DNA from: Candidatus Nomurabacteria bacterium RIFCSPHIGHO2_01_FULL_37_25
GTDB lineage: Bacteria > Patescibacteriota > Minisyncoccia > Phycocordibacterales > UBA9973
NCBI GenBank assembly: GCA_001786765.1
Contig: MFTH01000016.1
Coordinates: forward strand, 21,666 to 85,665
Length of the DNA stretch: 64,000 bases
Direction: 5' to 3'
The position numbers were made by a program, and so were the translations under genes. Positions 3,567 to 58,113 of this stretch are shown piece by piece. The notes beneath the pieces were generated by a model, which worked only from the letters and a program-made list of their open reading frames with translations, was not told the origin of the DNA and searched no databases. How positions within the stretch are numbered: the first letter of the stretch is position 1; every line of letters begins with the position of its first letter.

Positions 3567-3681
3567 CAAATACTTATATTTCTGCTATCGCAGAGTTCTA
3601 AGTATTTGTTAGTGTTTGTTATTTGTTTAGGTTAACTATTTTATCTTAAGATTATATTTTAAGATTATATCTTAAAATTAA

Positions 3682-4932
3682 CTATAATATTTTCTCTTTA
3701 ATTCTCTCAAGGGCGAGGATGAATGCGCCCATGCGCAGAGAAGTTTTTGTTTTTTTTGTTTTTTCTAACATTTTTTTAGAGGCGCCTTTCATAATTTTAT
3801 TTAATTTTTCAAAAACCTTTTCTTCACTCCAATGTTTATTTTTCAAATTTTGGTCCCATTCAAAATACGAAACTACAACTCCTCCGGAATTCGCAAGTAT
3901 ATCTGGCACAACCGGAATATCTTTTTTAAATAAAATTTCATCTGCCTCGGGCGTCGTAGGACCGTTGGCAAGTTCTAAGATAGCTTTAGCTTTTATTTTT
4001 CCAGCATTTTTCTCAGTTATAACATTTTCAAAAGCGGCTGGGATTAGAAGGTCACAGGGGAGTTCGAGTAATTCTGCATTTGTAATATTTTTAGCTCCTG
4101 GAAAATTTTTAAAGCTACCAGTCTTTTTCTTATAATTTTCAACACCTTCTAAATCTAATCCATTTTTGTTAAATATTGCGCTCTTAGAATCAGATACCGC
4201 TATGACTTTATGTTTATTTTCAGTAAAAATACGCGCTACATTTCCACCTACATTTCCAAAACCTTGAACCACTACTTTGCATTCTTCTGGGAGTTTGAGT
4301 TCTTTTCGAAGAGCGTCAAAAGCATAAAAACCACCTAAGCCAGTTGCTGGGCCTCTACCTTCTGAACCGCCTTTGTCTATAGGCTTACCTGTAAATGTCG
4401 CTCTTGTTTCATTGATATTTTTATTTTTAGTTATTTTTTTGTATTCATCTGCCATCCAAGCCATTATCTCTGGCGTGGTATTTACATCCGGCGCAGGCAC
4501 ATCTTTATATGGTCCCAAAATATCAGAAAGTTTTTGCACCCATCCGCGCGAAAGTTTTTCCAGTTCTCCTTTAGACAACTTTTTCGGATCAACTGTTACT
4601 CCGCCTTTACCTCCACCCATCGGAATTCCAGCTACTGCGCATTTGAGCGCCATCCAGAAAGCGAGAGCTTTTACTTCATTTATTTCAGTATCAAGATGGT
4701 ATCTGATTCCACCCTTGTATGGCCCTAGAGCGTTGTTATATTCCACTCTATATCCTTCAAAAACTCGCAAAGAACCGTCGTCCATTTTTATTGGAATCGA
4801 AATTCTTATATCGCGATCGGGTTGGCGCATTCTCTTTATAAACTCAGCGCTAAAACTTTTGTTTATTTTAGCAACTTTGTCTAGCTGTGCCATGGCGTTC
4901 TTAAATGGATTGTGCATGTTTATAGTATACAT
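3682..4932 (-). CDS. gdhA: NAD(P)-specific glutamate dehydrogenase
   Basis: 416 aa. KGGIRYH, GIPMGGGKGG, GFGNVGG dinucleotide motif. Confidence 0.9.
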   Translation of the reverse strand: MYTINMHNPFKNAMAQLDKVAKINKSFSAEFIKRMRQPDRDIRISIPIKMDDGSLRVFEGYRVEYNNALGPYKGGIRYHLDTEINEVKALAFWMALKCAVAGIPMGGGKGGVTVDPKKLSKGELEKLSRGWVQKLSDILGPYKDVPAPDVNTTPEIMAWMADEYKKITKNKNINETRATFTGKPIDKGGSEGRGPATGLGGFYAFDALRKELKLPEECKVVVQGFGNVGGNVARIFTENKHKVIAVSDSKSAIFNKNGLDLEGVENYKKKTGSFKNFPGAKNITNAELLELPCDLLIPAAFENVITEKNAGKIKAKAILELANGPTTPEADEILFKKDIPVVPDILANSGGVVVSYFEWDQNLKNKHWSEEKVFEKLNKIMKGASKKMLEKTKKTKTSLRMGAFILALERIKEKIL

Positions 4933-5697: not shown

Positions 5698-5718
5698 GAG
5701 TAATACATAATATATCGT

Positions 5719-5862
5719 AAATTACGAAACTTGTCGAAGGCATGTCTTTTTTAGGGGGTTTCGAGGCTGTCGAGCGCTGAACTTCAAGATTTTTCAAGGC
5801 TAATTTTTATTTGAAAAATCCGTACCCTAGAAAAAGACATGCCCAGAAAGAGTTTTGTAATT
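5719..5862. repeat. family-1 structured repeat, copy A (long form: outer stem + inner stem + core 5754-5827, core forward)
   Basis: Outer inverted repeat AAATTACGAAACT / AGTTTTGTAATT. Inner inverted repeat GGCATGTCTTTTTTAGGG / CCCTAGAAAAAGACATGCC. Core is GGGGGTTTCGAGGCTGTCGAGCGCTGAACTTCAAGATTTTTCAAGG...TTGAAAAATCCGTACCC. Confidence 0.85.
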
Positions 5863-7675: not shown

Positions 7676-7710
7676 CCTTCGGTCGCCGAAGCGACCTCAT
7701 AAATTACAAA

Positions 7711-7819
7711 ACTCATAAAATATCAATTTTTTCCGGTACGGATTTTTTGAAGGTTAAAAAATCCTGAAGTTTGCTCGCCGTCGCTCGCAAAACCCCTGCA
7801 AAAATTATATTTTATGAGT
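7711..7819. repeat. family-1 structured repeat, copy B (core 7734-7796, reverse orientation, divergent 5' half)
   Basis: Flanking inverted repeat ACTCATAAAATAT / ATATTTTATGAGT. Core is CGGTACGGATTTTTTGAAGGTTAAAAAATCCTGAAGTTTGCTCGCCGTCGCTCGCAAAACCCC. Confidence 0.8.
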
Positions 7820-7822
7820 TTC

Positions 7823-8848
7823 CTATCTTGCGTGTATATAAAGATATATATCCTCGAGAGCGCGGACGGCGTCGCCAGCGGCGATGTTGTTTTGATGATA
7901 TAGGACATTAGTGCAGTCTCCTGCCGCCCAGATACCGGGAATTTCTGTTTTTTGGGACCAAGCGTCAATTTTGATTCTTCCATATTCATCAAGTGGCACA
8001 AGGCTTTTAGCAAAATCAGTGTTTGGGATTTGTCCGATTTCCACAAAAATACCAGAGACTTTTAATTCTTTCTCTCCGCCTGCTTCCGACTCGGGAGGGC
8101 GAGCAGGTTTATAAATTATTCCTTCTACAAATTTATCGCCTTGCACTTCTAAGATTTCAATATTTTTTATTAATTTCATTTTTGGATTTTTCAAAACTTT
8201 TTCCACCGTTATTTCATCTGCGCGAAGAGTGTTGCTACGATTGAGAAGAGTTACAGATTTGCAATATGCCAGAAGTTGCGCGGCTGTTTCAAAGCCGGCA
8301 TTGCCTCCGCCGATTACAGCTACATCCATTTCCGAAAAAAGAGGTCCATCGCAAGAAGCGCAATAGGTGAGACCTTTGTGTTCAAGTTTGTCTGCATTTT
8401 TAGCAACAAGCTTCCTGCGTCCGCTTCCGCTCGTTATTAAAATTGTTTTAGTTAAAAACTCTTCACCTGATTCTATTTTGACAGAAAAATTCCCATCCTT
8501 TTTTTCTTTGGTGGAGGCGTTGCCTCCGCCATTTGACGGAAGCAAGGCTTCCGTAATGCTGATTACTTTTTCCCCTTCTTTTACTAGCAGGGTAGAACCT
8601 AAGTTTTCAGACTCTTTTATATTTTCCGTGCCTATGGCATTCGCCATTACATGTTTTTTTAAATTTTCCGCTAATTCATTACCAGAGATCAAGGTGGTGC
8701 CTATCCAATTGTAAATCTGTTCAGATACGATAGATTGTCCGCCCCATTCGGTGGTGATAAGAATAGTTCGGAGTCTTTTTCTAGAAGCATACACAGCCGC
8801 CGCCGTGCCCGCTGGCCCGCCTCCAATTATTATTAAGTCGTATGTCAT
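7823..8848 (-). CDS. trxB: thioredoxin-disulfide reductase with ~20-aa in-frame insertion
   Basis: MTYDLIIIGGGPAGTAAAVYA, CASC redox motif, AVIGGGNAG. The ORF track starts at GTG 8863. The ATG at 8848 gives the canonical N-terminus. Confidence 0.85.
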   Translation of the reverse strand: MTYDLIIIGGGPAGTAAAVYASRKRLRTILITTEWGGQSIVSEQIYNWIGTTLISGNELAENLKKHVMANAIGTENIKESENLGSTLLVKEGEKVISITEALLPSNGGGNASTKEKKDGNFSVKIESGEEFLTKTILITSGSGRRKLVAKNADKLEHKGLTYCASCDGPLFSEMDVAVIGGGNAGFETAAQLLAYCKSVTLLNRSNTLRADEITVEKVLKNPKMKLIKNIEILEVQGDKFVEGIIYKPARPPESEAGGEKELKVSGIFVEIGQIPNTDFAKSLVPLDEYGRIKIDAWSQKTEIPGIWAAGDCTNVLYHQNNIAAGDAVRALEDIYLYIHAR

Positions 8849-8878
8849 AATTTCATTATACACTATACATGGAATTTT

Positions 8879-8974
8879 AAAAATGTACTTTTGCAGGGGT
8901 TTCGAGGCTGTCGAGCCGAGAACTTCAGGATTTTTTAAGCTTCAAAAAATCCGTACCGGAAAAAGTACATTTTT
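8879..8974. repeat. family-1 structured repeat, copy C (core 8896-8958, forward). It fills the ftsZ-stop / trxB-start spacer.
   Basis: AAAAATGTACTTTT-gc-GGGGTTTCGAGGCTGTCGAGCCGAGAACTTCAGGATTTTTTAAGCTTCAAAAAATCCGTACCG-g-AAAAAGTACATTTTT. Confidence 0.85.
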
Positions 8975-8992
8975 AAAATTCTAGCCTGCTTT

Positions 8993-11479: not shown

Positions 11480-11840
11480 ATTTTCTTTCCGCTTTTTCCA
11501 TTGTACTACTATGTGTCATTCCTTTCAAATGAAGCATTCCGTGGATAACTAAAAACCCCAAGAATTGATCAAAGGTTTTAGAAAAATCTTTTGCTTCTCT
11601 CTTTACAACAGTCGGACACAGAATAAGCTCTCCCTCGTTCTCGCGTAAAGAAAAAGAAAGGATGTTGGTCGCTCTATCTTTCTTTCGATATTTTTTATTT
11701 ATTTCTTTAGATTTATTTTCGGCAACATAAGCTATGGATAGAGAATACTTTTTACCTAAAATATCGTTTTTTATTTTCAAAAACGGCAAAGGGGGGAGCT
11801 TGCTTTTTGTTTTGTTTATTATGGAGAAATTTTCTTCCAT
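11388..11840 (-). CDS. ybeY: rRNA maturation endoribonuclease YbeY
   Basis: HGMLHLKGMTH zinc motif. The 3' end overlaps ftsA by ~90 nt, so the C-terminus is uncertain. Confidence 0.7.
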   Translation of the reverse strand: MEENFSIINKTKSKLPPLPFLKIKNDILGKKYSLSIAYVAENKSKEINKKYRKKDRATNILSFSLRENEGELILCPTVVKREAKDFSKTFDQFLGFLVIHGMLHLKGMTHSSTMEKAERKYDEKYFSGNRPRLLNDESRGGRIFKRRKKS

Positions 11841-11842
11841 AA

Positions 11843-12082
11843 TTATTTAGTTGCCATCTTGCCAAGTTTTTTGAGTTTCTCTATTTCTTTTCTGCGAGCC
11901 ATCCTTTTAAGAGCGCTCTTTTTTACTTTGAGTTTGGATTCTTTTCGGACATTATAACGAGAGCCTTTCACTTTGCGGATTATGCCTGATTCTTGAATTT
12001 TACGCGAAAAACGACGCAAAATGCTTGAATTATTTTCATTTGGATTTTTCTTGACCTGTATTACAGTCTTTGCCATATACAA
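11843..12082 (-). CDS. rpsU: ribosomal protein bS21
   Basis: IQVKKNPNENNSSILRRFSRKIQESGIIRKVK...KKSALKRMARRK. Confidence 0.8.
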   Translation of the reverse strand: MYMAKTVIQVKKNPNENNSSILRRFSRKIQESGIIRKVKGSRYNVRKESKLKVKKSALKRMARRKEIEKLKKLGKMATK

Positions 12083-12135
12083 AAGACTAGCATATAATTG
12101 ACTCTTTTGTCAAAAAAAGATAACATTCATAGATT

Positions 12136-12618
12136 ATGAATCAAGTAGTTAATTATATAACTGAAGAAAAAAGAAAAGAGCTGAAAGTTGAACTAGAAGA
12201 ATTAAAAGGACCTAAAAGAAAAGAAATTTTAGCTGCTTTGAAGTATGCTAAATCATTAGGCGACTTATCAGAGAATGCGGAATATCATCAAACTCGTGAA
12301 GACCAAGGCAAGCTTGAAGAACGTATTGTCAAGATAGAACAAATTTTACAGTCTTCGCAAAATTTTTCTAGACGTGGAGGAGATGTTGTTGAAGTAGGCT
12401 CTAAAGTAATTGTGCAAAAGCTTGGAACGCAAACCAAAAATGTCGGCGAAGATATAATCTATACTATAGTAGGATCTGAAGAGGCAGATATGACAAAGGG
12501 TAAAATCTCTCATAGGTCTCCTTTTGGAGAAGCGCTTTTTGGCAAAAAGAAAGGCGAAAATATTTCATTTAAGACTCCAGGCGGGGTAGTTAATTATAAA
12601 ATAATAAATGTAAGTTAA
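12136..12618 (+). CDS. greA: transcription elongation factor GreA
   Basis: GDLSENAEYHQTREDQ coiled-coil motif plus a C-terminal FKBP-like domain. Confidence 0.85.
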   Translation: MNQVVNYITEEKRKELKVELEELKGPKRKEILAALKYAKSLGDLSENAEYHQTREDQGKLEERIVKIEQILQSSQNFSRRGGDVVEVGSKVIVQKLGTQTKNVGEDIIYTIVGSEEADMTKGKISHRSPFGEALFGKKKGENISFKTPGGVVNYKIINVS

Positions 12619-14834: not shown

Positions 14835-15272
14835 ATGCTTATCGGAGAATATATACATACGATTGATGAAAAAAACAGAGTTTCAATACCGGTAAAGTTT
14901 CGCAAAGAGCTCGGTAAGAAAATTATTATCACACCTGGACTTGGTCAATGTTTGTTCATTTTTACAATTAAAGAATGGGAAAAGGTAAGCAAGAAACTTT
15001 CTGATTCGGATTCTGATTTATCTTTTTTGAAAGCTGATCAAAGAAGTTTTAACAGATATATGTTTGGAAGAGCGGTGGAAATAGAGTTTGATTCGATCGG
15101 CCGAATATTAATTCCTGATTTTCTGAAAGATAGAATCGGACTTGCGAATTCCGCGGCAATTGTCGGAGTAAAAGACAGAGTGGAAGTATGGAGTGAGAAA
15201 GCATGGTCGGAGCAAAAAGAAATCGTGGAAAAGCAGGCGGAACAGTTGGCGGAGAAGTTGGGAAGTTCCTAA
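14835..15272 (+). CDS. mraZ: transcriptional regulator MraZ
   Basis: MLIGEYIHTIDEKNRVSIPVKFRKEL... A duplicated SpoVT/AbrB-like fold. First gene of the dcw block. Confidence 0.85.
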   Translation: MLIGEYIHTIDEKNRVSIPVKFRKELGKKIIITPGLGQCLFIFTIKEWEKVSKKLSDSDSDLSFLKADQRSFNRYMFGRAVEIEFDSIGRILIPDFLKDRIGLANSAAIVGVKDRVEVWSEKAWSEQKEIVEKQAEQLAEKLGSS

Positions 15273-15276
15273 AAAC

Positions 15277-15362
15277 ATAACTTTTTTCGGTACGAATTTT
15301 TCGAAGCTTGAAAAATTCTGAAGTTCTCGGCTCGTCAGCCTCGAAACCCCTGCAAAAGTTAT
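15277..15362. repeat. family-1 structured repeat, copy D (core 15288-15350, reverse)
   Basis: ATAACTTTT...CGGTACGAATTTTTCGAAGCTTGAAAAATTCTGAAGTTCTCGGCTCGTCAGCCTCGAAACCCC...AAAAGTTAT. Confidence 0.85.
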
Positions 15363-15384
15363 TTTTTAGAAACTTCAAAAATAT

Positions 15385-18517: not shown

Positions 18518-18524
18518 TAATGAA

Positions 18525-18644
18525 TCCCGTTAGAGATATGATGGTTTTTCAGAAAAAATGAAAGAGAATATAACAATATGATTAAAGTTTTAATTAAAAG
18601 TAATGTAATTACGGAAATCTAAAGATTTCCTATCTCTAACGGGA
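18525..18644. mobile_element. TIR-bounded element, copy 1 (TIR TCCCGTTAGAGATA / TATCTCTAACGGGA); the right TIR abuts the murF ATG
   Basis: Perfect 14-bp terminal inverted repeats enclose 92 nt of AT-rich sequence. The same TIR is at 41105-41183. Confidence 0.7.
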
Positions 18645-19993
18645 TGAAGACAATTCTTAAAAAAATAATAGCTTACATACTACAGATAGAATCACGCCTG
18701 GTAATTTTTAGATATAAACCGAAGATTGTCGCTATTACCGGCTCGGTCGGCAAGACTTCCACTAAGGATGCAGTTTATGCAGTTCTCTCCGGAATGTCGC
18801 ATGTTCGCAAAAGTGAGAAAAGCTATAATAGCGAAATAGGATTGCCACTGACTATTTTAGGTATTCCAAATGGATGGAATAATCCTCTGGTGTGGGTTCA
18901 AAATATTTGGAAAGGTCTTTGGCTTTTTCTTAGTCCTTTTGGGCCTCACAAATATCCCAAATGGCTTGTCCTCGAAGTCGGTGTAGGCAAGCCGGGTGAT
19001 ATGCGTCGCACAGCTTCTTGGTTTAAAACTGATGCGGTTATCATCACTGCCATCAGCGAGACTCCGGCTCATATTGAATTTTTTAATTCCCGAAAAGACC
19101 TTATAAAAGAAAAAAGCGAGCTCATAAAAACTTTAAAACCAGATGGCATTTTAATATTAAATGCTGATGACGAGGACGTGCTCTCTATGAGAAACCAAAG
19201 TAAGACTAAAGATAAGCATCGCGCTATAACTTATGGATTTACAGAAGGCGCTGATGTTTTGGCATCTCAAGATAGTATTTTTTATGGTGATTTAGGTGAA
19301 CCTCGAGGAATAACTTTTAGAATAGATGAGAGGGGGAATAGTCTACCTGTAATTACAGAAGGTGTATTTGGCAGAAATCATGTCTATGCTTCTCTCGGAG
19401 CTTTAGCTTTTTCTTCAATTTTGAAATTTAATATGCTGGATGCGGTGAATTCGCTAAAAAATTATGATGTTGCGCCAGGGCGTATGCGATTGCTAAATGG
19501 TATTAACGGAACTTTGATTATTGATGATACTTATAACTCTTCTCCTTTTGCTTGTGAATCCGCGCTTAAAACTTTAGGAGAAGTAAAATGTTTGGGGAGG
19601 AAAATTGCTATTTTGGGCGATATGCTTGAATTAGGTAAATACACAGAAGAAGCTCATAAAAATATCGGCAAGATAGCTAAAGAAAATTGTGATGTTTTGG
19701 TAGTGGTGGGTCATAGAGCGCAAGCTATAAAGTCTGGTGCTCTGGAAGCAGGGATGAATAATGCGAATATTTTTGAATTTTTAGATTCATATCAAGCTCA
19801 CGAATTTGTAAAAACTTTTGTGCGGGCAGGCCCGCCTGCTCCTGACGAAGGAGGGCGGGCAGGGGACTTGGTGCTCGTAAAAGGTTCTCAAGGTATGCGT
19901 ATGGAGCGTGTGGTAGAGGCGATACTTTTTGATAAAGAAAATAAAGAAAAACTACTGGTTCGTCAAGACAAAGAATGGTTGAAGAAAAAATAA
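18644..19993 (+). CDS. murF: UDP-N-acetylmuramoyl-tripeptide--D-alanyl-D-alanine ligase with a GC-rich hairpin insertion near the C-terminus
   Basis: ITGSVGKTSTK P-loop, Mur ligase domains. Extra RAGPPAPDEGGRAG before LVLVKGSQG. Confidence 0.85.
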   Translation: MKTILKKIIAYILQIESRLVIFRYKPKIVAITGSVGKTSTKDAVYAVLSGMSHVRKSEKSYNSEIGLPLTILGIPNGWNNPLVWVQNIWKGLWLFLSPFGPHKYPKWLVLEVGVGKPGDMRRTASWFKTDAVIITAISETPAHIEFFNSRKDLIKEKSELIKTLKPDGILILNADDEDVLSMRNQSKTKDKHRAITYGFTEGADVLASQDSIFYGDLGEPRGITFRIDERGNSLPVITEGVFGRNHVYASLGALAFSSILKFNMLDAVNSLKNYDVAPGRMRLLNGINGTLIIDDTYNSSPFACESALKTLGEVKCLGRKIAILGDMLELGKYTEEAHKNIGKIAKENCDVLVVVGHRAQAIKSGALEAGMNNANIFEFLDSYQAHEFVKTFVRAGPPAPDEGGRAGDLVLVKGSQGMRMERVVEAILFDKENKEKLLVRQDKEWLKKK

Positions 19994-23308: not shown

Positions 23309-23435
23309 ACTTGGCTATTTTAGCATAATTTTGTTATACTAGACAGGAAAATGTTGTTTTAGAAAGCCTTGCGCAGGAGCTTAGAAAATAAAAGCGGTAC
23401 TCCGATTATTATTTTCTTGAGCGACGAGCAGTTCG

Positions 23436-23453
23436 CTGGCAAAGCTTTGCCAG
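23436..23453. promoter_or_regulatory. 18-bp perfect palindrome CTGGCAAAGCTTTGCCAG in the divergent exonuclease/yqeY promoter region
   Basis: A perfect dyad ~38 nt upstream of the yqeY ATG. Candidate operator. Confidence 0.4.
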
Positions 23454-23490
23454 ACAGATTGCTTTATAAAATAATATTTTCCTGTGTTTT

Positions 23491-23940
23491 ATGCTACACG
23501 AACAAATTAAAAATGGAATAAAAGAAGCGATGATGGCAAAGGATGCTTTGCGTTTGAAAGCTTTTAGAGCAATGTCGGCCGCATTTACAAATGAACTCGT
23601 CGCTAAAGGCAGGAAACCGCAAGATATGCTTACTGACGAGGAGGCGATAGCTGTGATTGCGAAACTTGCAAAGCAACGTAACGATTCTATTGTTCAGTTT
23701 AGAAAGGGTGGCAGAGAGGATTTGGTAAAAGAAGAATCAGCAGAGCTTTCGATTCTAAAAACGTATTTACCAGAAATGATGAATAAAAGTGAGGTTGAAA
23801 AAATAGCTCGCGCTAAAAAAAGCGAATTGGGTATTACAGATGCTACTAAAAAAGGAATGCTTATGTCGGCAGTTATGAAGGATTTAAAAGGCAAAGCGGA
23901 TGGTAATTTAGTGAAAGAAGTCATAGATTCACTCTTTTGA
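23491..23940 (+). CDS. yqeY: GatB/YqeY domain protein
   Basis: 149 aa, colinear with the YqeY family (MLHEQIKNGIKEAMMAKDALRL...). Confidence 0.8.
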   Translation: MLHEQIKNGIKEAMMAKDALRLKAFRAMSAAFTNELVAKGRKPQDMLTDEEAIAVIAKLAKQRNDSIVQFRKGGREDLVKEESAELSILKTYLPEMMNKSEVEKIARAKKSELGITDATKKGMLMSAVMKDLKGKADGNLVKEVIDSLF

Positions 23941-23993: not shown

Positions 23994-24893
23994 ATGAAAA
24001 AATTAAGCAAAAAATTAGTAACGCACGATGGATCTTTTCAATCAGATGATATTTTCGCGGCCGCGACGCTTGCTATTTTTCTTGAAAAAGCTGGAGAGAC
24101 TTTTGAAATAATAAGAACTCGAAATCCTGAAATCATTAATACTGGCGATTATGTTTTTGACGTAGGTGGAATATATGATGAAGCTATAAACAGATTTGAT
24201 CATCATCAAATAGGCGGGGCGGGCAAAGGTTTGGACAATATAGACTATGCCGCTTTTGGTTTAGTTTGGAAAAAATTTGGAAAAATAGTTGCTGGGAGTG
24301 AAAAGGTGGCAGGACTTATAAATAAACGTTTAGTTACCCCAATTGATGCTTGGGATAACGGTTTTGATTTGGTTCTTAATAAATATAATGTAACGCCGTA
24401 TTATGTGCAGCACTTTTTTTTGTCGATGGTGCCGACTTGGAGAGAAGAGAATATAACCAACGATGAAATGTTTCTAAAAAGCGTAGAGATTGCAAAAGAG
24501 ATTTTGTTACGGGAAATAATTCATGCGCAGGACTTGCTTTTAGCAGATGAAAAAGTTCTTTCTATATATAACAATACTAAAGACAAACGAATAATTATTT
24601 TAGATAAAAATTATCCTTATGAATATACTCTAACTAATTTCTCTGAACCCCTTTTTGTAATCTATCCCAGAATTAATGACAATTTGTGGGGAGTGAAAGC
24701 CGTTAGGAAAAATCCAAAATCTTTTAGTAATAGAAAAGACTTCCCAAAATCGTGGGCCGGATTGCGAGACGATGAATTGCAAAAAACCAGCGGAGTGTCG
24801 GATGCTGTATTTTGTCACCGAGGATTATTTATGGCTGTAGCCAAATCAAAAGAAGGAGCTATGAAATTAGCTCAAATTGCTGTAAAATCATAG
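23994..24893 (+). CDS. MYG1/UPF0160 family metal-dependent hydrolase
   Basis: THDGSFQSDDIFAAA and FDHH motifs characteristic of MYG1. Confidence 0.75.
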   Translation: MKKLSKKLVTHDGSFQSDDIFAAATLAIFLEKAGETFEIIRTRNPEIINTGDYVFDVGGIYDEAINRFDHHQIGGAGKGLDNIDYAAFGLVWKKFGKIVAGSEKVAGLINKRLVTPIDAWDNGFDLVLNKYNVTPYYVQHFFLSMVPTWREENITNDEMFLKSVEIAKEILLREIIHAQDLLLADEKVLSIYNNTKDKRIIILDKNYPYEYTLTNFSEPLFVIYPRINDNLWGVKAVRKNPKSFSNRKDFPKSWAGLRDDELQKTSGVSDAVFCHRGLFMAVAKSKEGAMKLAQIAVKS

Positions 24894-24981
24894 ACTATGA
24901 GAATGAAAAATTTAAGCGTCGTGGGTTCCCTGTCCTTATGACCTCGAGGGCGAAGGCGCAAGAATTTTTTATTCTCATAGT
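24894..24981. repeat. family-2 hairpin element, intergenic copy (between the MYG1 gene and obg)
   Basis: ACTATGAGAAT-gaaAAATTTAAGCGTCGTGGGTTCCCTGTCCTTATGACCTCGAGGGCGAAGGCGCAAGAATTTTtt-ATTCTCATAGT. The 11-bp flanking inverted repeat differs from the rsmH copy. Confidence 0.85.
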
Positions 24982-24995
24982 CTGTACTATATATC

Positions 24996-28871: not shown

Positions 28872-30581
28872 ATGTTAGGAAAAATGAAAGATGAAATTAA
28901 AAAATTTTTTAAAGGAGATGTGGAAGATGGAGAAGAAACACTTTCAAAATATTCACGGGATGCGAGTATTTTTAAAGTGAAACCCAAGCTCGTTCTTTTC
29001 CCAAAAGATTCGGAAGATGTAAAAAAATTAGTGAAATGGGTTTCTGAAAATAAAGATAAGTACGCAGATATTGAAAGAAATAAAGACTGGAAAAATCTTT
29101 CCATTACTTCTAGATGCGCGGGGACAGATATGTCTGGAGGCGCCATAGGAGAATCTTTAATTTTAGATTTTACAAAATATATGAATAAGTTAATAAGATG
29201 GAGTCAGGATGTGAAGAATTCTTCACATCCTGACTCCATTACTGTGCAGCCTGGTATGTTTTATAGAGATTTTGAAAAATTAACTTTAGAAAAAGGACTT
29301 ATTTTACCTTGTTACACAGCCTCCAAAAGTATAAATGCGATGGGGGGAATGTTTGGTAACAATTCTGCCGGCGAGAGAACGCTGAAATATGGTAAAACTG
29401 AAGATTATATTTTAGAAACTAAAATAGTTTTTTCTGATGGGATTGAAAGAATTGTAAAACCTATTTCTTTGAACGACATTTCTAAGCAAGGAGAAATTTA
29501 TAAAAATATTTATAATTTAATTAAAAATAATAAAGAGGAGATAGAATTCGCGAAACCCAAAGTGCACAAAAACTCGGCTGGTTATTATATATGGAATGTT
29601 ATTCAAAAGAATGTTTTTGATATGAATAAATTGCTTGTTGGTTCGCAGGGAACTTTAGGTATTGCCACAGAGATAACTTTTAAACTGGTACCGGAAAATA
29701 AACATTCAAAACTAGTTGCTATTTTTATGAAAAATCTAGAACCGCTTGGTCGTTTAGTAGATGAAATTTTAACGCTTAACCCTGAAACACTTGAAGCCTA
29801 TGATGACAAAACGATGAAATTAGCCGTCAGATTTTTCCCGGATTTTTTAAAAAATAAAGGATTTTTTGGGATGATTAAATTTATATGGAGTTTTTTACCA
29901 GAATTTTTCTTGATGGCCACAGGAGGTTTTCCTAAATTAATTCTTCTGGCTGAATTTGCAGGCGGAGATGAAGTGGAGATAAATAAACAATGTATAAAAC
30001 TTAGAGAGAAAATCAAAAATTTTAAATTAAAAATTCACATTACTAAATCTGAAATGGAAGCAAATAAATATTGGGATATTAGAAGAGAGAGTTTTGCATT
30101 ACTTCGAAAGCACATAAAAGGCAAGAGCACTGCTCCATTTATAGATGATATTATTGTCCGTCCAGAATTTCTGCCAAAATTTCTTCCAGAACTTAATGTT
30201 ATTTTAAATAAATATGATCTAACTTACACAATCGCTGGACATGCGGGAGAAGGGAATTTTCATGTTATTCCATTGATGGATTTTAAACGTTCTGATACGG
30301 CAAAAATAATAATGGAACTTTCGGAGAAAGTATATAACTTAGTGATAAAATATCATGGTTCGATTACGGCTGAACACAATGATGGCATAATTCGCACTCC
30401 ATATTTAGAAAAGATGTACGGGCAAAAGATGATTAAAATCTTCAGTGAGATTAAGGAAATTTTTGATTCTAAAAATATTTTTAATCCTGGGAAAAAAGTC
30501 GCAATAGCTTCTGTGGGTGGTACTAAGGAATATATGGTGACCCATATTGCAGTAGAACATGATGTAAATCATAAAGTTTAA
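28872..30581 (+). CDS. FAD-linked oxidase (GlcD/D-lactate dehydrogenase-like)
   Basis: FAD-binding PCMH domain (RCAGTDMSGGAIG). C-terminal FAD-oxidase domain. 569 aa. Confidence 0.7.
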   Translation: MLGKMKDEIKKFFKGDVEDGEETLSKYSRDASIFKVKPKLVLFPKDSEDVKKLVKWVSENKDKYADIERNKDWKNLSITSRCAGTDMSGGAIGESLILDFTKYMNKLIRWSQDVKNSSHPDSITVQPGMFYRDFEKLTLEKGLILPCYTASKSINAMGGMFGNNSAGERTLKYGKTEDYILETKIVFSDGIERIVKPISLNDISKQGEIYKNIYNLIKNNKEEIEFAKPKVHKNSAGYYIWNVIQKNVFDMNKLLVGSQGTLGIATEITFKLVPENKHSKLVAIFMKNLEPLGRLVDEILTLNPETLEAYDDKTMKLAVRFFPDFLKNKGFFGMIKFIWSFLPEFFLMATGGFPKLILLAEFAGGDEVEINKQCIKLREKIKNFKLKIHITKSEMEANKYWDIRRESFALLRKHIKGKSTAPFIDDIIVRPEFLPKFLPELNVILNKYDLTYTIAGHAGEGNFHVIPLMDFKRSDTAKIIMELSEKVYNLVIKYHGSITAEHNDGIIRTPYLEKMYGQKMIKIFSEIKEIFDSKNIFNPGKKVAIASVGGTKEYMVTHIAVEHDVNHKV

Positions 30582-41049: not shown

Positions 41050-41104
41050 TTTTTGTGTTTTTTAGAGTGATGATTAAAAACACTATGTCTTCATTATTTG
41101 TTGA

Positions 41105-41183
41105 CCCCGTTAGAGATAACACCATGCATGTTTCATTATATTAATTAATCTTGTGAATTTATTTATGAAAATCTCTAACGGGG
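41105..41183. mobile_element. TIR-bounded element, copy 2 (CCCCGTTAGAGATA / ATCTCTAACGGGG); the right TIR overlaps codons 3-7 of dnaG
   Basis: Same 13-14-bp TIR as 18525-18644 with an unrelated AT-rich interior. Confidence 0.7.
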
Positions 41184-42958
41184 TTGATCAAATAAAATCA
41201 AAAATAGATATACTCTCACTAGTTTCATCTTATATAAAACTAGATAAAGCTGGAGCAAGTTGGAAGGGTAAGTGTCCGTTTCATAATGAAAAAACACCGT
41301 CGTTTTTTGTATCGCCGGCGAGGGAAAGTTATTATTGTTTTGGTTGCGGAGCGTCTGGAGACATATTTACTTTTGTGGAAGAATTTGAAGGGCTTGATTT
41401 TAAGGGCGCGCTGAAACTTTTAGCCGATAAAGCTGGAGTGACGCTTGAAGTTTACAGCAAAGAGATGCAAGAAGCCAAAGAGAATAAGAGTGAAAAAGAA
41501 AAATTATATACAGCGATAGAAGAAGCTACAAAGTTTTTTGAAAATAATTTAAAAGAAAACAAGAATGCGCAAGAATATTTAAAATCACGTGGATTAACAG
41601 AAAAAAGTATCAAGGATTTTAGAATTGGTTTTGCTCTTCTTGATTGGCATAGACTTTATGATTATCTAAAATCTAAGAATTTTTCTGATAATGAAATAGA
41701 GAGAGCAGGATTAGCCAAAAAATCAGACAATGATGCAGAAAAGTTGAATAAAAGAATGTATGATAGATTTCGTGGAAGAATTATGTTCCCAATCTCTGAT
41801 TCAAGTGGTCGCGTTATCGCTTTTTCTGGCAGAATCCTGGTTGACGATGGCCCGCTTCGCCATGGCTCCAGCGAGGCGAGTAAGTCCGCCAAGTATTTAA
41901 ATAGTCCGGAGACTTTAATATTCAACAAATCTTCTGTGCTTTTTGGCATAGATAAAGCAAAAGATGCAATTCGTAAAAACAACTTTTCTATTTTGGTTGA
42001 GGGGCAAATGGATTTAATTTTATCACACCAGGCAGGATATAAAAATACAGTTGCGACATCTGGCACAGCTTTATCGGATTCGACAATTTCTAAAGAGAAT
42101 GTTATTTCAAATTTAGGTCTTATTCGCCGTCTTTCTTCAAACATTGTGCTTGCTTTTGATGCTGATAGCGCTGGAGCCAATGCTACCATTAAAGCGGGCA
42201 AAATAGCTCTTTCACTGGGGATGGATGTAAAAGTGGTGGATATGCCGGATGGAATCGATCCTGCGGATTTGATTACGCAAAATAATTCTATTGCGGGATC
42301 GGATGCATGGCGTCTTGCGATAAAAAATTCCAAACATATCATTGAATTTCTTTTAGATAAAGTTTTGAAAAATTTCAAAAATGATACTCGTAAGATAGGT
42401 ATGGAAATAAAAGAAAAAATATTGCCATTTGTCAATGTATTAGAAAGTTCAATAGAAAAAATGTATTTTATTAAAAAAATAAGCGACGCCTCATCTATTC
42501 CTCAAAATGCTCTGCAAGATGATTTAAAGAAAATTGAGCAAGAATTAAAATATGAAACAGAAGAAACAAAAACTGCAAAAGAAAATGTAGAAAAAAAGTT
42601 GAGAAAAGATCCGATTGAAAGGAGACTCTTTGGGATAGCTTTTTGGCAAGAGAGTTTAAAAAGTAGAACCATAGAACCAGAGTTGATTTTTACAAAATTA
42701 CATAAGGCAAAAGAGGCTTTTCTAGATATGAAAGAAGATTTGATTTATGAAGCTGAAATATTTTATTTAAATAGTGAGAATTTGCAAAAAGATGTAAATG
42801 AAATGTTGCTTTCCATTGAAGAAGAGTATCTAAATGAAGAGCTTGTCAAAACAATGATAGATTTCAGAAACCTTAAAGATAAAAAATTGGAGGTGGAAAT
42901 TTTAAAAAAGATCGATAAAATAAATAAAAGAAAAGAAGAAATTAAAAATAGTCGTTAA
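41165..42958 (+). CDS. dnaG: DNA primase
   Basis: Zinc ribbon CPFHNEKTPSFFVSPARESYYCFGCGASGD. TOPRIM domain. The ORF-track start GTG is at 41153; the ATG at 41165 (MKISNGVDQIK) is preferred. Confidence 0.85.
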   Translation: MKISNGVDQIKSKIDILSLVSSYIKLDKAGASWKGKCPFHNEKTPSFFVSPARESYYCFGCGASGDIFTFVEEFEGLDFKGALKLLADKAGVTLEVYSKEMQEAKENKSEKEKLYTAIEEATKFFENNLKENKNAQEYLKSRGLTEKSIKDFRIGFALLDWHRLYDYLKSKNFSDNEIERAGLAKKSDNDAEKLNKRMYDRFRGRIMFPISDSSGRVIAFSGRILVDDGPLRHGSSEASKSAKYLNSPETLIFNKSSVLFGIDKAKDAIRKNNFSILVEGQMDLILSHQAGYKNTVATSGTALSDSTISKENVISNLGLIRRLSSNIVLAFDADSAGANATIKAGKIALSLGMDVKVVDMPDGIDPADLITQNNSIAGSDAWRLAIKNSKHIIEFLLDKVLKNFKNDTRKIGMEIKEKILPFVNVLESSIEKMYFIKKISDASSIPQNALQDDLKKIEQELKYETEETKTAKENVEKKLRKDPIERRLFGIAFWQESLKSRTIEPELIFTKLHKAKEAFLDMKEDLIYEAEIFYLNSENLQKDVNEMLLSIEEEYLNEELVKTMIDFRNLKDKKLEVEILKKIDKINKRKEEIKNSR

Positions 42959-45039: not shown

Positions 45040-45112
45040 TTATTTATTTTTTAATTGTTAATATCTTTATTATAGCATCTTTTTGTATTATGCTATAATA
45101 GCTATAGCAACT

Positions 45113-45251
45113 TTGAATTACGAAACTCTTTCTAGGCATGTCTTTTTCTAGGGTACGGATTTTTTTAAGTTTAAAAAATCCTGAAGTTCTCGGCTCGACA
45201 GCCTCGAAACCCCCTAAAAAAGACATGCCTTCGACGAGTTTCGTAATTCAA
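45113..45251. repeat. family-1 structured repeat, copy E (long form, core 45151-45224 reverse)
   Basis: Outer inverted repeat TTGAATTACGAAACTC / GAGTTTCGTAATTCAA. Inner inverted repeat CTAGGCATGTCTTTTTCTAGG / CCTAAAAAAGACATGCC. Both stems are shared with copy A. Confidence 0.85.
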
Positions 45252-45329
45252 AGTTATAAAATTTAATTTGCTTGTTTGGTCGTTCAAGCAAAGTATTGTA
45301 TTTATTAAATATTTTTAAAGTATAAACAT

Positions 45330-45646: not shown

Positions 45647-46891
45647 ATGGTTTTAATTCCAAACATAATATTTTATGTGTTAATCTTTTTGTCTGTCTAC
45701 GCGCAGGTCTTTTTTCTTGTTACATTTTTTGAAAATAGAAAAAAAATAGTTATTAGAAATGGAAAAACTAAGCTTAATAAATATGAAACAGTAACCATTG
45801 TTGTGCCGTGCTGGAATGAAGAGAGTACTGTTTATAAAACAATACGCTCGCTTCTCGCCTTAAATTATCCGCAAGATAAATTAAAAATTTTACTCATTGA
45901 TGATGGTTCTACTGATGGCACTTGGAATATAATTCGTAAGTTTAAAAAATATCCAAATATAAAAATCTTTCAAAAAGAAAATGGTGGCAAATATACAGCT
46001 CTAAATTTAGGATTAAAACATTCAGAGACAAGTTTTTTTGGGGCCTTAGACGCAGATACCTTGGCCGATCCGGAGTCCCTGATTCGCATTATGAGTTATT
46101 TTGAAAAAGACAAGAGTATTATGGCTGTTGTTCCTTCAGTTGTTGTCTATAATCCAAAGAATTTAATTCAAAATGCTCAAAAAGCCGAATACCATATGGG
46201 CGTTTATACGAAGAAAATGCTTAGTTTCTTGGGGGCTATTAATGTGACTCCAGGACCTCTCACGATCTTTCGGAGAAAAGTTTTTGACGATTTGGGACCT
46301 TATCGACACGGACACAATACAGAGGATATGGAAATTGCTTACAGAATGCAAAAAAATAATTGTAAAATAGAACACTGTAATGACGCTTTCGTTTATACTA
46401 ATACACCGAACACAATTATCAAATTATACAAGCAAAGACTGCGTTGGATTTACGGTTTTATAAATAATACAATTGATTATCGTGATGTTTTGTTGAAAAA
46501 AAAATATGGGAACTTTTCTCTATTTATTCTACCAACAGGTGTTGTCTCTATTCTTGCCATAAGTTACCTTTTTGGCAGGCTAGTTTATAGTTCAATTAAT
46601 TTTATTTATCTGAAGTTTATTACTTTCAATACCATAGGATGGAATTTGTCTTTTAAAAGTTACAACTTTGATCTTTTTTTTATAGATACTAGTTCATATG
46701 TATTTTTAGTTTTTTTGATTTATCTTTTGGTTATTTTTGGAATAGTTTTTGGAAGAAGAATGTCAGAAGGGAAATGGGTTTTGTCTTTTAATATGATTTA
46801 TTTTTTAATAGTTTTTCGTTTTCTTGCTCCATTTTGGTTTTTAAAGGCAATTTATAGTACTATTTTAAAGAGGAAGCCTGCCTGGAGATGA
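45647..46891 (+). CDS. family 2 glycosyltransferase, processive-type membrane enzyme
   Basis: LIDDGSTDGT, DADT, QRLRW (QxxRW) motif. Multiple TM helices. Confidence 0.75.
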   Translation: MVLIPNIIFYVLIFLSVYAQVFFLVTFFENRKKIVIRNGKTKLNKYETVTIVVPCWNEESTVYKTIRSLLALNYPQDKLKILLIDDGSTDGTWNIIRKFKKYPNIKIFQKENGGKYTALNLGLKHSETSFFGALDADTLADPESLIRIMSYFEKDKSIMAVVPSVVVYNPKNLIQNAQKAEYHMGVYTKKMLSFLGAINVTPGPLTIFRRKVFDDLGPYRHGHNTEDMEIAYRMQKNNCKIEHCNDAFVYTNTPNTIIKLYKQRLRWIYGFINNTIDYRDVLLKKKYGNFSLFILPTGVVSILAISYLFGRLVYSSINFIYLKFITFNTIGWNLSFKSYNFDLFFIDTSSYVFLVFLIYLLVIFGIVFGRRMSEGKWVLSFNMIYFLIVFRFLAPFWFLKAIYSTILKRKPAWR

Positions 46892-46913
46892 TTACTAAAA
46901 TAACACTTAATTC

Positions 46914-47582
46914 ATGATTGATTGGAAGAAATATTTAATTGTATTTTTTATTACTGCCGGTCTTTTTTTAACGGCAGGTTATTTTAGTAATTATCTCGGC
47001 AATAAAAAAATTGATCAAATAAAATCAATACAAGATCAAATTGCCATAAATATTCTTTCTTCAGAAACACAGTTTTCATTACTTCAAGAACTCTCCTGTA
47101 ATAATGTATCAGCATCTATACTTTCTGATGAACTTGATGATATTGGCAATAAGCTCGAATGGGGACAGAAAAATTTGGGTTCGATAGATGAGGTTTCTTA
47201 TTTAAAAAAATACTATTCATTGCTTCAGATTAAAGATTACTTATTAATGAAAAAAATATCTGCGAGCTGTAAAATAAAGTCTGCCTTTATTCTTTATTTT
47301 TATACTACAGCTGAAAACTGCAGTGAATGTGAACGAGAGAGTATAGTCCTTTCAGAACTTCGTGAAAAATATCCAGAACTTCGTGTCTATTCTTTTGATT
47401 ATAGTACGGATCTTTCTGTGGTCAAAGCCTTGCTTAAAATTTATAAAATAAAGGATACAGAACTTCCGGCTCTTGTCTTAGGAGACGAACTCTTGACGGG
47501 CTTCCATAGTATTGATGAACTTGACGCAAAAGTCCAAAAGTCTTTCAAGCTTCAGGAAACAAAATCAAATGGAAATACATAA
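46914..47582 (+). CDS. hypothetical membrane-anchored protein
   Basis: N-terminal TM helix, CSEC motif. No family assigned. Confidence 0.3.
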   Translation: MIDWKKYLIVFFITAGLFLTAGYFSNYLGNKKIDQIKSIQDQIAINILSSETQFSLLQELSCNNVSASILSDELDDIGNKLEWGQKNLGSIDEVSYLKKYYSLLQIKDYLLMKKISASCKIKSAFILYFYTTAENCSECERESIVLSELREKYPELRVYSFDYSTDLSVVKALLKIYKIKDTELPALVLGDELLTGFHSIDELDAKVQKSFKLQETKSNGNT

Positions 47583-48361: not shown

Positions 48362-48396
48362 AATTACTAACTCAGATACAATATCATATTACTTCG

Positions 48397-48523
48397 AATT
48401 ATGAAACTCAAAAATATAACTTTATGCAGGGGTTTCGAGGCTGACGAGCCGAGAACTTCAAGATTTTTTAAGCTTCAAAAAATCTGTACCGGAAGAAAGT
48501 TGATATTTTTGAGTTTCATAATT
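48397..48523. repeat. family-1 structured repeat, copy F (core 48429-48492 forward) inside a 21-bp perfect outer stem
   Basis: AATTATGAAACTCAAAAATAT...GGGGTTTCGAGGCTGACGAGCCGAGAACTTCAAGATTTTTTAAGCTTCAAAAAATCTGTACCGG...ATATTTTTGAGTTTCATAATT. Confidence 0.85.
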
Positions 48524-48535
48524 CATAAATATTAT

Positions 48536-55712: not shown

Positions 55713-56194
55713 TGGTCCTGCATTGGATAGCTACTATTACCCGCCTTCGCTTAGGCTATGGCGTGGTGATAGAGGAAAGTCCGAACACAGACCAGTTCTT
55801 TTTTAAAAGAGTTGGTAGCATGGTAGTGGGTAACGCCCACATATAGCAATATATAGGTGCGAGCAGAGACGTCTTAATTCGAAAGAATTAAGATATCCAG
55901 TAATGGATAAATCTTTATATAAACTCAGGGCTTGCCCTGAGCGAAGTCGAAGGGTGAAACGGCTAAATCCTTACCTCTGTGCAAGATCGTGCCCCGCCCT
56001 CTTGAGTGCTGAACTTTATGTTTGCAATATATTTAGTCAGATATTTTGTAACGTTGAATTGAAAAAGTTTATATTGAGCACTCAAGAGGGCGGGGAGAAT
56101 CGCTTGAGCCCGAGAGTAATCGAGGGCCTAGATAAATTGCTATCTATTTTGTTTTAACAAAATACACAAAATTCGGCTTATAGATGCAAGACCA
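55713..56194 (+). ncRNA. rnpB: RNase P RNA (bacterial type A-like) with an unusually long 19-bp helix insertion
   Basis: P4 5' strand GAGGAAAGTCCGAAC (55772) pairs with the 3' strand TTCGGCTTA (56172), keeping the conserved bulged U. GGGTAACGCC and AGGGTGAAACGG motifs. The P18 region GCTTGAGCC...GGCCTAGATAAAT closely parallels E. coli GCUUGAGCC...GGCCUAGAUGAAU. P1 is TGGTCCTGCAT / ATGCAAGACCA. GNRA hairpin CTTAATTC-gaaa-GAATTAAG. Confidence 0.65.
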
Positions 56195-57890: not shown

Positions 57891-58113
57891 TAAATAATTA
57901 AATCTATAAATGATTCCAAGCTATTGGGATGTTACGGAAGAATTGACAAATTCTTATAATATGTTATAGTGTGTGAAATGTGAAAGTTCTTTGATATTCC
58001 GTGACAACAAAGAGGACATTAAAAAAATAATAAAAAAGTGTCTTCTTTGTTGCCACGGAAAATACGATTGCAACTGTTTTCTCAATCCTGAGAAACAAAA
58101 AGAAGGAGGAGTT

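Follow-up and report, generated by a model that had tools for sequence, protein, structure and literature searches.

A family of long intergenic hairpins was found in a 64,000-nucleotide stretch of the genome of Candidatus Nomurabacteria bacterium RIFCSPHIGHO2_01_FULL_37_25 (assembly GCA_001786765.1, contig MFTH01000016.1, positions 21,666 to 85,665), which is referred to in its entirety as the window. The window holds six copies, A to F. We interpret them, with a probability of about 0.6, as non-coding interspersed palindromes of a family specific to Paceibacteria, comparable in kind to ERIC, REP/BIME and miniature inverted-repeat transposable elements (MITEs). This kind fits best because the hairpins are non-coding and multi-copy, vary in number, have been added to gene junctions, have been duplicated and are sited where insertion is tolerated. 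They are unusual in that the conserved part is an asymmetric, covarying, strand-specific centre and not the ends.

The first-pass annotation of the window, made from the letters alone, had reported six intergenic repeats, each with a conserved core inside its own inverted repeat. All six positions were borne out by pattern scans and by a covariance model (R1), which was built from 114 homologues and run over the whole window with filters off. R1 gave exactly six full-length matches with 69-105 bits, and all other matches scored below 18 bits. A 34-nt core pattern with up to three mismatches matched four times (0.00 expected), and a 20-nt core pattern matched five times. A candidate seventh copy at 40321 (one mismatch to a 15-mer) was rejected as a chance match within coding sequence. 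Pfam and tRNA calls agreed with the neighbouring genes that had been named, and TrxB of the window was identical to a protein of Candidatus Nomurabacteria bacterium RIFCSPHIGHO2_01_FULL_37_2x. The whole hairpins, with the R1 match and score in brackets, are as follows.

5720..5862, plus strand: copy A, in the spacer between the UDG and NTP-transferase genes, antisense (5741-5841, 69.2 bits; inverted repeat I3).
7709..7821, minus strand: copy B, 3' of trxB, sense to trxB and convergent with tRNA-Ser (7721-7810, 90.5 bits; I11).
8872..8981, plus strand: copy C, in the ftsZ-trxB spacer, with the folding strand antisense to both genes (8882-8971, 104.8 bits; I4).
15262..15376, minus strand: copy D, between mraZ and rsmH, antisense, with an orthologue in a close relative, L129 (15275-15364, 97.6 bits).
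45109..45255, minus strand: copy E, in the divergent spacer between a DsbA-like gene and a DUF378 gene (45137-45227, 97.7 bits; I1).
48396..48524, plus strand: copy F, between an open reading frame (ORF) of 133 amino acids (minus) and tRNA-Thr (minus), antisense to both (48415-48504, 94.4 bits; I6).

Copy C, the best match to the model, consists of the following parts.

8896..8957, plus strand: conserved 62-nt core, GGGG...GTACC, (nearly) invariant in the 114 homologues, in part because the search pattern imposed it.
8901..8922, plus strand: helix P2, UUC-GA-GGCU-GUCG-AGCC-GA-GAA, with nine rungs, tandem G.A, a GNCG loop and covarying pairs.
8923..8927, plus strand: junction strand CUUCA between P2 and P3, invariant, which might instead pair with GGGG.
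8928..8952, plus strand: helix P3, GGAUUUUUU, loop AAGCUUC, AAAAAAUCC, with covarying pairs.

The flanking inverted repeats exist as described, with arms of 26 nt and 92% complementarity in copy C (8872-8897 and 8956-8981), 39 nt and 90% in copy E, and 22 nt with perfect complementarity at the termini of copy F. Two further descriptions held in part. The copies are in general intergenic, but an arm of copy D contains the last three codons and the stop of mraZ. The arms had been called copy-specific, which does not apply to copies A and E, where a whole 149-nt unit is common, or to copies B and F, which have arms in common. Copy E is a full unit with terminal inverted repeats (TIRs; ACTTTGAATTACGAAAC...CAAAGT) and a near-duplicate of copy A, which has TIR-type arms (AATTACGAAAC...), a P3 loop that is 10 nt larger and a degenerate 3' side of P2. 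In copy B, P2 is a variant with shifted G.A pairs (UUUGC-GA-GC-GACG-GC-GA-GCAAA).

We scanned one genome per GTDB species with the core pattern (loci are labelled with L-numbers below) and obtained at least 111 loci with more than 120 copies in more than 80 Paceibacteria metagenome-assembled genomes (MAGs). Among the matches listed, almost all were in Nomurabacteria, Paceibacterota, Yanofskybacteria, Yonathbacteria or generic Patescibacteria MAGs. A lone match in Flavobacteriales did not fit the fold and was treated as chance. R1 added more divergent copies within the pattern-scan loci, and the search for relatives in other Patescibacteria, which had been proposed as a check, thus yielded many. 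Copy density was uneven, with six in the 64-kb window, five plus one remnant in 179 kb of loci chosen by mraZ and one in 56 kb of loci chosen by trxB. No copies were present in IMG/VR viral contigs or INPHARED phage records, and a phage or viral origin was rejected. A search of the whole window against Rfam 15 at gathering thresholds returned five tRNAs only. At E ≤ 10, copy C matched only generic long-hairpin microRNA models, with 20-24 bits compared with gathering scores of 86-100. The core therefore belongs to no known Rfam family, ribozyme models included, which answers a second proposed check. Full-text literature searching found such elements nowhere described in Patescibacteria. The hairpins of 110-150 bases, which have one conserved three-armed fold as their cap, apparently constitute a large, undescribed intergenic family of the Paceibacteria, a group of the candidate phyla radiation.

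In every copy a long stem, P1, is topped by the 62-nt core with the inner helices P2 and P3. P1 is ~22 bp long by strict extension and ~29 bp in the minimum free energy structure. Beside the core it has a conserved UUUU/AAAA segment, and the three rungs of its internal loop are purine-purine in some copies (5'-GNA/3'-ANG) and entirely Watson-Crick in others (UAG/CUA). At the P1 column pair 15-82, for example, A.G occurs in 67 sequences and G-C in 35. The consensus of P2 is UU-C-GA-GGCU-GNCG-AGCC-GA-G-AA and that of P3 is GGAUUUUUU-AAGCUUC-AAAAAAUCC; the two helices are connected by the invariant strands GGU, CUUCA and GUA. The P3 loop is 92-100% conserved although the search pattern had left it free. 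Four family-1 copies, that is, relatives of the six in the window, carry insertions (L063:988-1097, L087:3104-3214, L063:12-127 and 3667-3783), either a GC-rich hairpin (CCCCGCC...GGCGGGG) in the P3 loop or an insert at the P2-P3 junction, which indicates that the cap tolerates insertion at both places.

The alignment supports this fold. Covariation over 34 pairs was 0.290 compared with 0.122±0.005 in shuffled alignments (none of 500 reached the observed value), and slid partners gave at most 0.106. Mutual information in the alignment was highest at the proposed base pairs. In P2, pairs 23-42, 28-38, 29-37 and 30-36 each occur as two to four Watson-Crick types, such as C-G (52), U-A (44) and G-C (12) at 23-42, G-C (55), C-G (51), U-A (6) and A-U (2) at 29-37, and C-G (59) and U-A (51) at 30-36. 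The register with 23-42 is better than that of RNAalifold, because 22-42 is broken in 12 sequences and 23-42 covaries cleanly. The tandem G.A pairs occupy one of two registers, rungs 24/41 and 26/40 in 85 sequences or rungs 27/39 and 28/38 in 27, and the registers differ by four substitutions; in L098, P2 is entirely Watson-Crick. In P3, pairs 50-76, 51-75 and 59-68 covary across the 114 sequences, the basal pair 50-76 being G-C in 79, G.U in 27, A-U in seven and A.C in one. No signal of pseudoknot or loop-loop covariation was obtained from the alignment, because the loops hardly vary. Compensatory changes in the AU-rich hairpin of the core had been noticed within the window. They are real in copy D (A-U and C-G for G-C and U-A) and in copy F (A-U for G-C), but copy A has an A.C mismatch at the base. 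The wider claim, selection on secondary structure, was upheld: covariation exceeds that of all 500 shuffles, the slid controls are far lower, and orthologues differ by compensatory double changes (below).

Good folding is confined to the GGGG...GTACC strand, as the tandem G.A motif and the G.U pairs demonstrate. P2 has 225 G.A or A.G cells in the alignment and zero C.U cells; for inner P1 the corresponding numbers are 164 and 14, and P3 has 28 G.U and two A.C. This strand was the more stable one in 111 of the 114 cores (mean -20.3 versus -16.4 kcal/mol). In the distal arms G.U pairs are even (201 on one strand, 208 on the other), so that the arms behave as a symmetric palindrome, unlike the core.

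To follow individual sites, copies were grouped by homology of both flanking proteins. The 16 orthologous-site groups contained 41 within-group pairs in the same orientation and 30 flipped pairs (~40%). The ftsZ-trxB spacer is occupied in seven genomes, in which the arms are recognisably related and the P2 variants differ. The clearest comparison is with L129, a close relative of the window genome (mraZ 92% identical). Its copy C is inverted relative to identical flanks, and the arm differences are coordinated, for example A-T to G-C. Its copy D has the same orientation as that of the window, with two compensatory double substitutions in P3 (A-U to G-C and C-G to U-A) and coordinated arm changes. 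The unit persists at the same spacer across species while its arms drift and stay complementary, and the cap keeps its fold through compensatory changes and flips its orientation over evolutionary time. Nine assemblies of the same population (identical TrxB) showed no flipping, with copy C always on the minus and copy B always on the plus strand. This uniformity indicates that flipping is evolutionary and not a phase switch; the mixed orientations expected of a phase-variation inverton were not seen among the nine assemblies. Two metagenome contigs of this population (L148 and L149, position 1-65) end inside copy C, which is usual for a repeat. In L141, L142 and L143 the gene content 3' of copy B and tRNA-Ser differs from ~3900 onwards despite identical TrxB, a strain-level rearrangement.

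Relatives with TrxB 75-80% identical conserve the synteny, and some of them have empty sites. In L112 and L113, mraZ and rsmH abut or overlap, and in L113 and L114 the UDG and NTP-transferase genes are adjacent or overlapping; these junctions lack hairpins altogether. We surveyed further mraZ/rsmH junctions in metagenomes by a degenerate coding pattern and found ~20 empty and few filled (the window and L129, which have the same arms there, L117 and L121); the genome scan added two filled junctions, those of L078 and L099. In L121 (4231-4271), element-type arms enclose only GGGTAC-GAAAT-CCCC. Both core ends are retained, which identifies an internal deletion and not an unfilled hairpin; the deletion probably took P2 and P3 via short TCG/CCG repeats. 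Since empty junctions lack a stem, the arms belong to the added unit: what ancestral gene junctions have gained is the entire hairpin.

The unit has also been duplicated to unrelated loci. Copies A and E align over 149 nt at such loci, terminal repeats included, and are a recent intragenomic duplicate; L002/L021 and others likewise have common arms and core at separate loci. A conserved terminus, (A)CTTTGAATTAYGAAAC, occurs in copies A, E and F, partly in B, and in L061, L077, L107, L109 and L110. Two observations concern the outer ends. In L061 (2300-2480) the palindrome runs past the recognisable element (TAATTACCCCAAATT...AATTTGGGGTAATTA), and the mraZ/rsmH element (window 15262-15376 compared with L118; also L117) has one arm whose distal part is similar to the spacer native to empty sites. 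These observations might reflect growth of the palindrome into its flanks or only chance similarity in AT-rich DNA.

The spacers that carry the element are not a random sample. They are convergent in 37% of cases compared with 12% of the background and divergent in 8.5% compared with 16% (chi-square p = 2e-10). Half of all copies lie between co-directional genes, and here the folding strand is antisense in 56 and sense in 15 copies (~4:1; site-weighted 41 versus 9, p = 6e-6). The four co-directional copies of the window are all antisense. Given how readily the cap flips, such a bias requires either selection or flipping that is itself biased. Hairpin stability and spacer length did not differ with orientation, nor did stability differ with context. 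The median distance from the core to the upstream stop codon is 27-34 nt, about one arm length, which places the foot of the stem at the stop codon; the median distance to the next start codon is 44-47 nt.

Several points weigh against an interspersed element of the ERIC or MITE kind. The centre is most conserved and the termini are not, the reverse of a classical MITE. A target-site duplication could not be delimited. The inspected loci of 8-20 kb contained no transposase or other partner protein, and TIR pairs in them always enclosed 100-150 bp. Copy A has a possible duplication, AATATA, on both sides, the boundaries of which were chosen post hoc; copy E, L110 and L055 have none, and L117 is flanked by GAAAAATC and GAAAAACAAC. 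As the flanks are AT-rich, chance matches are likely. Presence and absence at junctions could partly reflect precise loss and not gain. The median co-directional spacer in these genomes is 24 nt, and long persistence at orthologous spacers in such compact genomes argues for a host function and not only for selfish spread. The antisense bias could reflect the direction of replication instead; skew, which tracks the coding strand, did not separate this from gene direction. Finally, two points concern the core itself. GGGGTTT, AACTTCA..ATTTT and GTACC were demanded by the search pattern, which makes their invariance partly an ascertainment effect, and copies found only by the model carry UUUCA where others have CUUCA. 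At the junction, RNAalifold prefers an alternative in which GGGGUUU pairs with AACUUC.

Several known repeats are similar. Among them are ERIC/IRU, the ~127-bp imperfect palindromes of Enterobacteriaceae. They are similar in size, are intergenic in transcribed regions in both orientations, vary strongly in copy number between genomes, are conserved across species with pairing kept and are non-coding, and their mode of spread has not been established either. Their sequences are unrelated and the phylum differs; the hairpins described here have an asymmetric, branched, strand-specific centre and arms far more variable than that centre. REP/BIME/REPIN sequences are likewise multi-copy extragenic palindromes at gene 3' ends, often convergent, that form hairpins in RNA or single-stranded DNA. 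However, REPs are 20-40 nt long with a GTAG-type tetranucleotide and a cognate RAYT gene, whereas the present units have 110-150 nt, a 62-nt non-palindromic cap and no such tetranucleotide that we could see, and so fall outside the REP/REPIN definition; no RAYT was identified in the loci inspected. The Correia elements (NEMIS) of Neisseria and the MITEs RUP, BOX and bcr1 are also non-autonomous repeats of 100-150 bp with TIRs and insertion polymorphism. Correia-type MITEs are co-transcribed with their neighbours, and their long stems can be cut by RNase III. In Correia elements the TIRs are fixed at 26 bp and TA is duplicated; in the present family, termini are conserved in one subfamily only (A, E and F), no target-site duplication was defined and conservation is central.

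Flipping has a different precedent. In small hairpin-associated inversions, as in the non-coding DNA of plastids, and in quasipalindrome template switching, a loop flanked by inverted repeats flips between close relatives and arm mismatches are corrected together, as seen here in copy C compared with L129 and in 30 of the 71 orthologous pairs. These are mutational mechanisms and not an element family, and we invoke them for flipping and arm complementarity only.

In our interpretation the unit is the whole hairpin of 110-150 bp, with an A/U-rich P1 of 20-30 bp and its purine-rich internal loop, and a 62-nt asymmetric cap, which folds on one strand only as two helices around a junction of invariant nucleotides. 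By analogy with the inversions above, arm complementarity and cap flipping may arise by hairpin-templated strand switching or recombination between the arms, aided by selection for the hairpin. The element is presumably transcribed within 3' untranslated regions or intercistronic RNA, where the long stem might serve as a gene-boundary hairpin for 3'-end formation or processing, or merely be tolerated. Selection against the well-folded orientation between co-transcribed genes would explain the 4:1 antisense bias. The cap could be the sequence-specific module, to which a putative protein that processes or propagates the element would bind, either in folded RNA or in single-stranded DNA.

The cap might itself be the functional entity, namely a small structured RNA of a new type, such as a self-cleaving ribozyme or a three-way junction that docks a protein, with P1 as a mere closing helix. 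Its layout resembles that of a small ribozyme or riboswitch: P1 varies and covaries, both inner helices covary, ~11 nucleotides of the junction are invariant and the loops are conserved. The strand-specific fold with tandem G.A and G.U, the compensatory changes between orthologues, a P2 module common to three related families and the depletion of the sense orientation in operons, expected if the folded RNA cut or terminated transcripts, would all agree with it. Multiple loci per genome would compare with the hammerhead and twister loci of some bacteria. Hammerhead, twister and twister-sister ribozymes indeed share the three-helix junction, ~11 invariant nucleotides, a variable closing helix, tandem G.A by an inner helix, many copies and often mobile contexts. 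However, the Rfam search down to E ≤ 10 gave no ribozyme, and the hammerhead motifs are absent. The hammerhead core CUGANGA/GAAA, fitted by eye, does not match. The strands of the junction here are GGU, CUUCA and GUA; a string like CUGACGA is part of P2 and is variable (CTGT/CTGA/GCGA) where the hammerhead has its invariant A6, and GAG takes the place of GAA. The hammerhead was rejected. Both orientations are tolerated at the same site. In addition, the folding strand is antisense to local transcription in ~80% of co-directional spacers and no conserved upstream promoter is present, which suggests that most copies are not transcribed as the folding strand. We therefore consider a free-standing structured RNA possible but unlikely. 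A bolder version, to which we give somewhat less credence still, would make the cap a new functional fold (a new class of small RNA with self-cleaving or other catalytic activity, or the RNA or single-stranded DNA recognition structure of a hairpin-specific enzyme) and the hairpins domesticated gene-boundary devices that replace canonical terminators and processing sites in these ultra-compact genomes, with the palindrome extending into its flanks and copying them by hairpin-templated synthesis.

The earlier proposal of a MITE that inserts into the loops of existing hairpins or terminators has to be divided. Its MITE part is favoured by varying presence at junctions and the recent A/E duplicate. 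Its second part, in which only the core and ~10 bp of proximal stem would be mobile and land at the apex of pre-existing hairpins, would explain why the distal arms of 91 of 117 copies have no detectable similarity to those of any other copy. It would also suit the enrichment at gene 3' ends and in convergent spacers, the different P2 variants and orientations of orthologous copies with related arms, the same arm types around different caps (family 2 in L113 and the interiors of the TIR family, see below) and the many other long hairpins with unrelated centres in the window. Against it, the empty mraZ/rsmH and UDG/NTP-transferase sites have no hairpin to insert into, and the only stem-only hairpin at a filled site, that of L121, keeps the GGGTAC...CCCC ends of a deletion product. 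A/E and L002/L021 share arms as well as core. The P2 variants are only four substitutions apart and could have arisen in place, and since arms at orthologous sites are related, divergence suffices to explain unique arms. Insertion into pre-existing loops is thus contradicted at the sites where empty junctions were available, and improbable; it may still be a means by which hairpins exchange their caps.

Bidirectional intrinsic terminators, or general 3'-end hairpins with an incidental cap, had also been suggested. The threefold enrichment in convergent spacers with depletion in divergent ones, the hairpin foot at the stop codon of the upstream gene, and an A-run and a T-run flanking the stem in some copies are what such hairpins would show, and each of the genes 3' of copies A and C has a -10-like box of its own. 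The canonical signature fails, however. Stems are A/U-rich, and a run of at least four U at the hairpin foot was found in only 18 of 115 copies on the top strand and 25 of 115 on the bottom strand (16-22%), and a consensus terminator scan of the window gave no excess over shuffled sequence. Half of the copies stand between co-directional, tightly spaced genes such as mraZ and rsmH, and the conserved strand-specific cap and the orientation bias would be left unexplained. We regard an ordinary terminator family as doubtful indeed. The -10-like boxes (window 8829-8856 and 5700-5740, minus strand) resemble TATAAT and TATATT and directly follow the hairpins, 6-12 nt upstream of the start codons (ATG) of trxB and the NTP-transferase gene. 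From their sequence, they could be short-leader or leaderless promoters, with the arm of copy A supplying a -35 element, TCGACA; the outward promoter-like pair TCGACA-17-TATATT consists of the copy A arm and its flank. Inspection of the core by eye revealed no sigma-70-like hexamer pair with correct spacing on either strand.

The hairpins might alternatively be relics of a single-stranded DNA transposon (IS200/IS605, REP-RAYT or another HUH system), in which the cap would be the DNA recognised by the enzyme and the orientation bias a product of replication direction. The strand-specific fold is compatible with this, since tandem G.A pairs are stable in DNA too, as are the strong bias, the conserved centre in place of conserved termini, and the lack of a target-site duplication, which is expected of the class. 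The element flanks examined contained no Y1/HUH gene, however, nor was a conserved tetranucleotide seen beside the elements. Co-orientation of genes with replication would put the folding strand on the leading-strand template, whereas IS200/IS605 elements prefer the lagging-strand template. The cap also flips at fixed sites, so that orientation is not set by insertion alone. Such a relic seems very improbable to us.

The weakest alternative, a short peptide gene or an in-frame insertion like the Rickettsia palindromic elements, can practically be dismissed: two frames of the top strand lack stops in 104 and 110 of 121 copies, but the frame is disrupted by length variants of the core (61, 63, 64, 72, 82 and 83 nt), the 121 copies would yield 75 distinct 'peptides' that differ by paired-nucleotide swaps, P2 covariation scrambles the product, no start codon or ribosome-binding site is conserved, and every copy found is intergenic or overlaps just the last codons of a gene. 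The 'peptide on both strands' of the first-pass annotation merely reflects copies lying in both orientations. The Rickettsia elements are likewise palindromic repeats in a reduced genome, but they insert in frame into coding genes, whereas the present copies are intergenic with no frame conservation.

Bacteria of the candidate phyla radiation have tiny genomes, with a median co-directional spacer of 24 nt, yet the six copies occupy ~750 bp of the window and related hairpins take up more. A family this widespread, fold-conserved, strand-specific and orientation-biased is unlikely to be neutral. If the hairpins mark transcript ends or processing sites, they would be the first described gene-boundary signal of this uncultivated lineage and would improve the annotation of operons and gene ends, as with copy D, which supplies the stop of mraZ. 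If the cap is catalytic or docks a protein, it would add a new covariation-backed motif to the orphan structured nucleic acids. The repeats also break metagenome assemblies and can be miscalled as small ORFs.

The window also contains a hairpin of a related family, detected by BLAST.

23336..23492, plus strand: 'family 2' hairpin, with similar arms, the same P2 module (GCA-GG..-..-GA) and a different cap (I2).

Family 2 matched L113:9785-9965 and eight other loci, including L101, L108, L048, L082 (two copies), L055 and L086, and had no match in Rfam. Its cap contains the P2 module (a stem, G(C)A, a 4-bp GC stem, GACG, a 4-bp stem, GA and a stem) and a hairpin with an AGCA loop. In L113 the ftsZ-trxB spacer holds A/E-type arms around a family 2 cap. 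Divergent variants of family 1 (L018, L054, L036, L043 and L089) have the same two modules, P2 and an AGC-containing loop. The terminal repeat CTKTGAATTACGAAAC encloses several different interiors (L055:1530-1682, L077:5586-5707 and L110:3222-3374), which suggests that the A/E/F-type termini may be a MITE-like shell with exchangeable centres. A regular expression for the outer-arm module was too strict and found three copies only.

Other hairpins of the window are unrelated in their centres. Intergenic inverted repeats at 18524-18645 and 41101-41187 share the arm CCCGTTAGAGAT around unrelated centres of 60-86 nt and, judged by this arm, may represent a third hairpin repeat family. Near-perfect inverted repeats of 20-22 bp fill spacers at 24892-24983, 46885-46997, 55992-56095 and 57998-58059; their centres are 16-73 nt long and not palindromic. 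It appears that intergenic DNA in this genome is generally rich in long capped hairpins. At ~11500-12150 of the window, genes switch from the minus to the plus strand and GC and AT skew change sign; this region could be a replication origin, although skew tracks the coding strand. At 29198-29239 lies a spacerless, perfect palindrome of 42 bp (ATGGAGTCAGGATGTGAAGAA/TTCTTCACATCCTGACTCCAT), which according to our ORF call is inside a long ORF (28872-30581).

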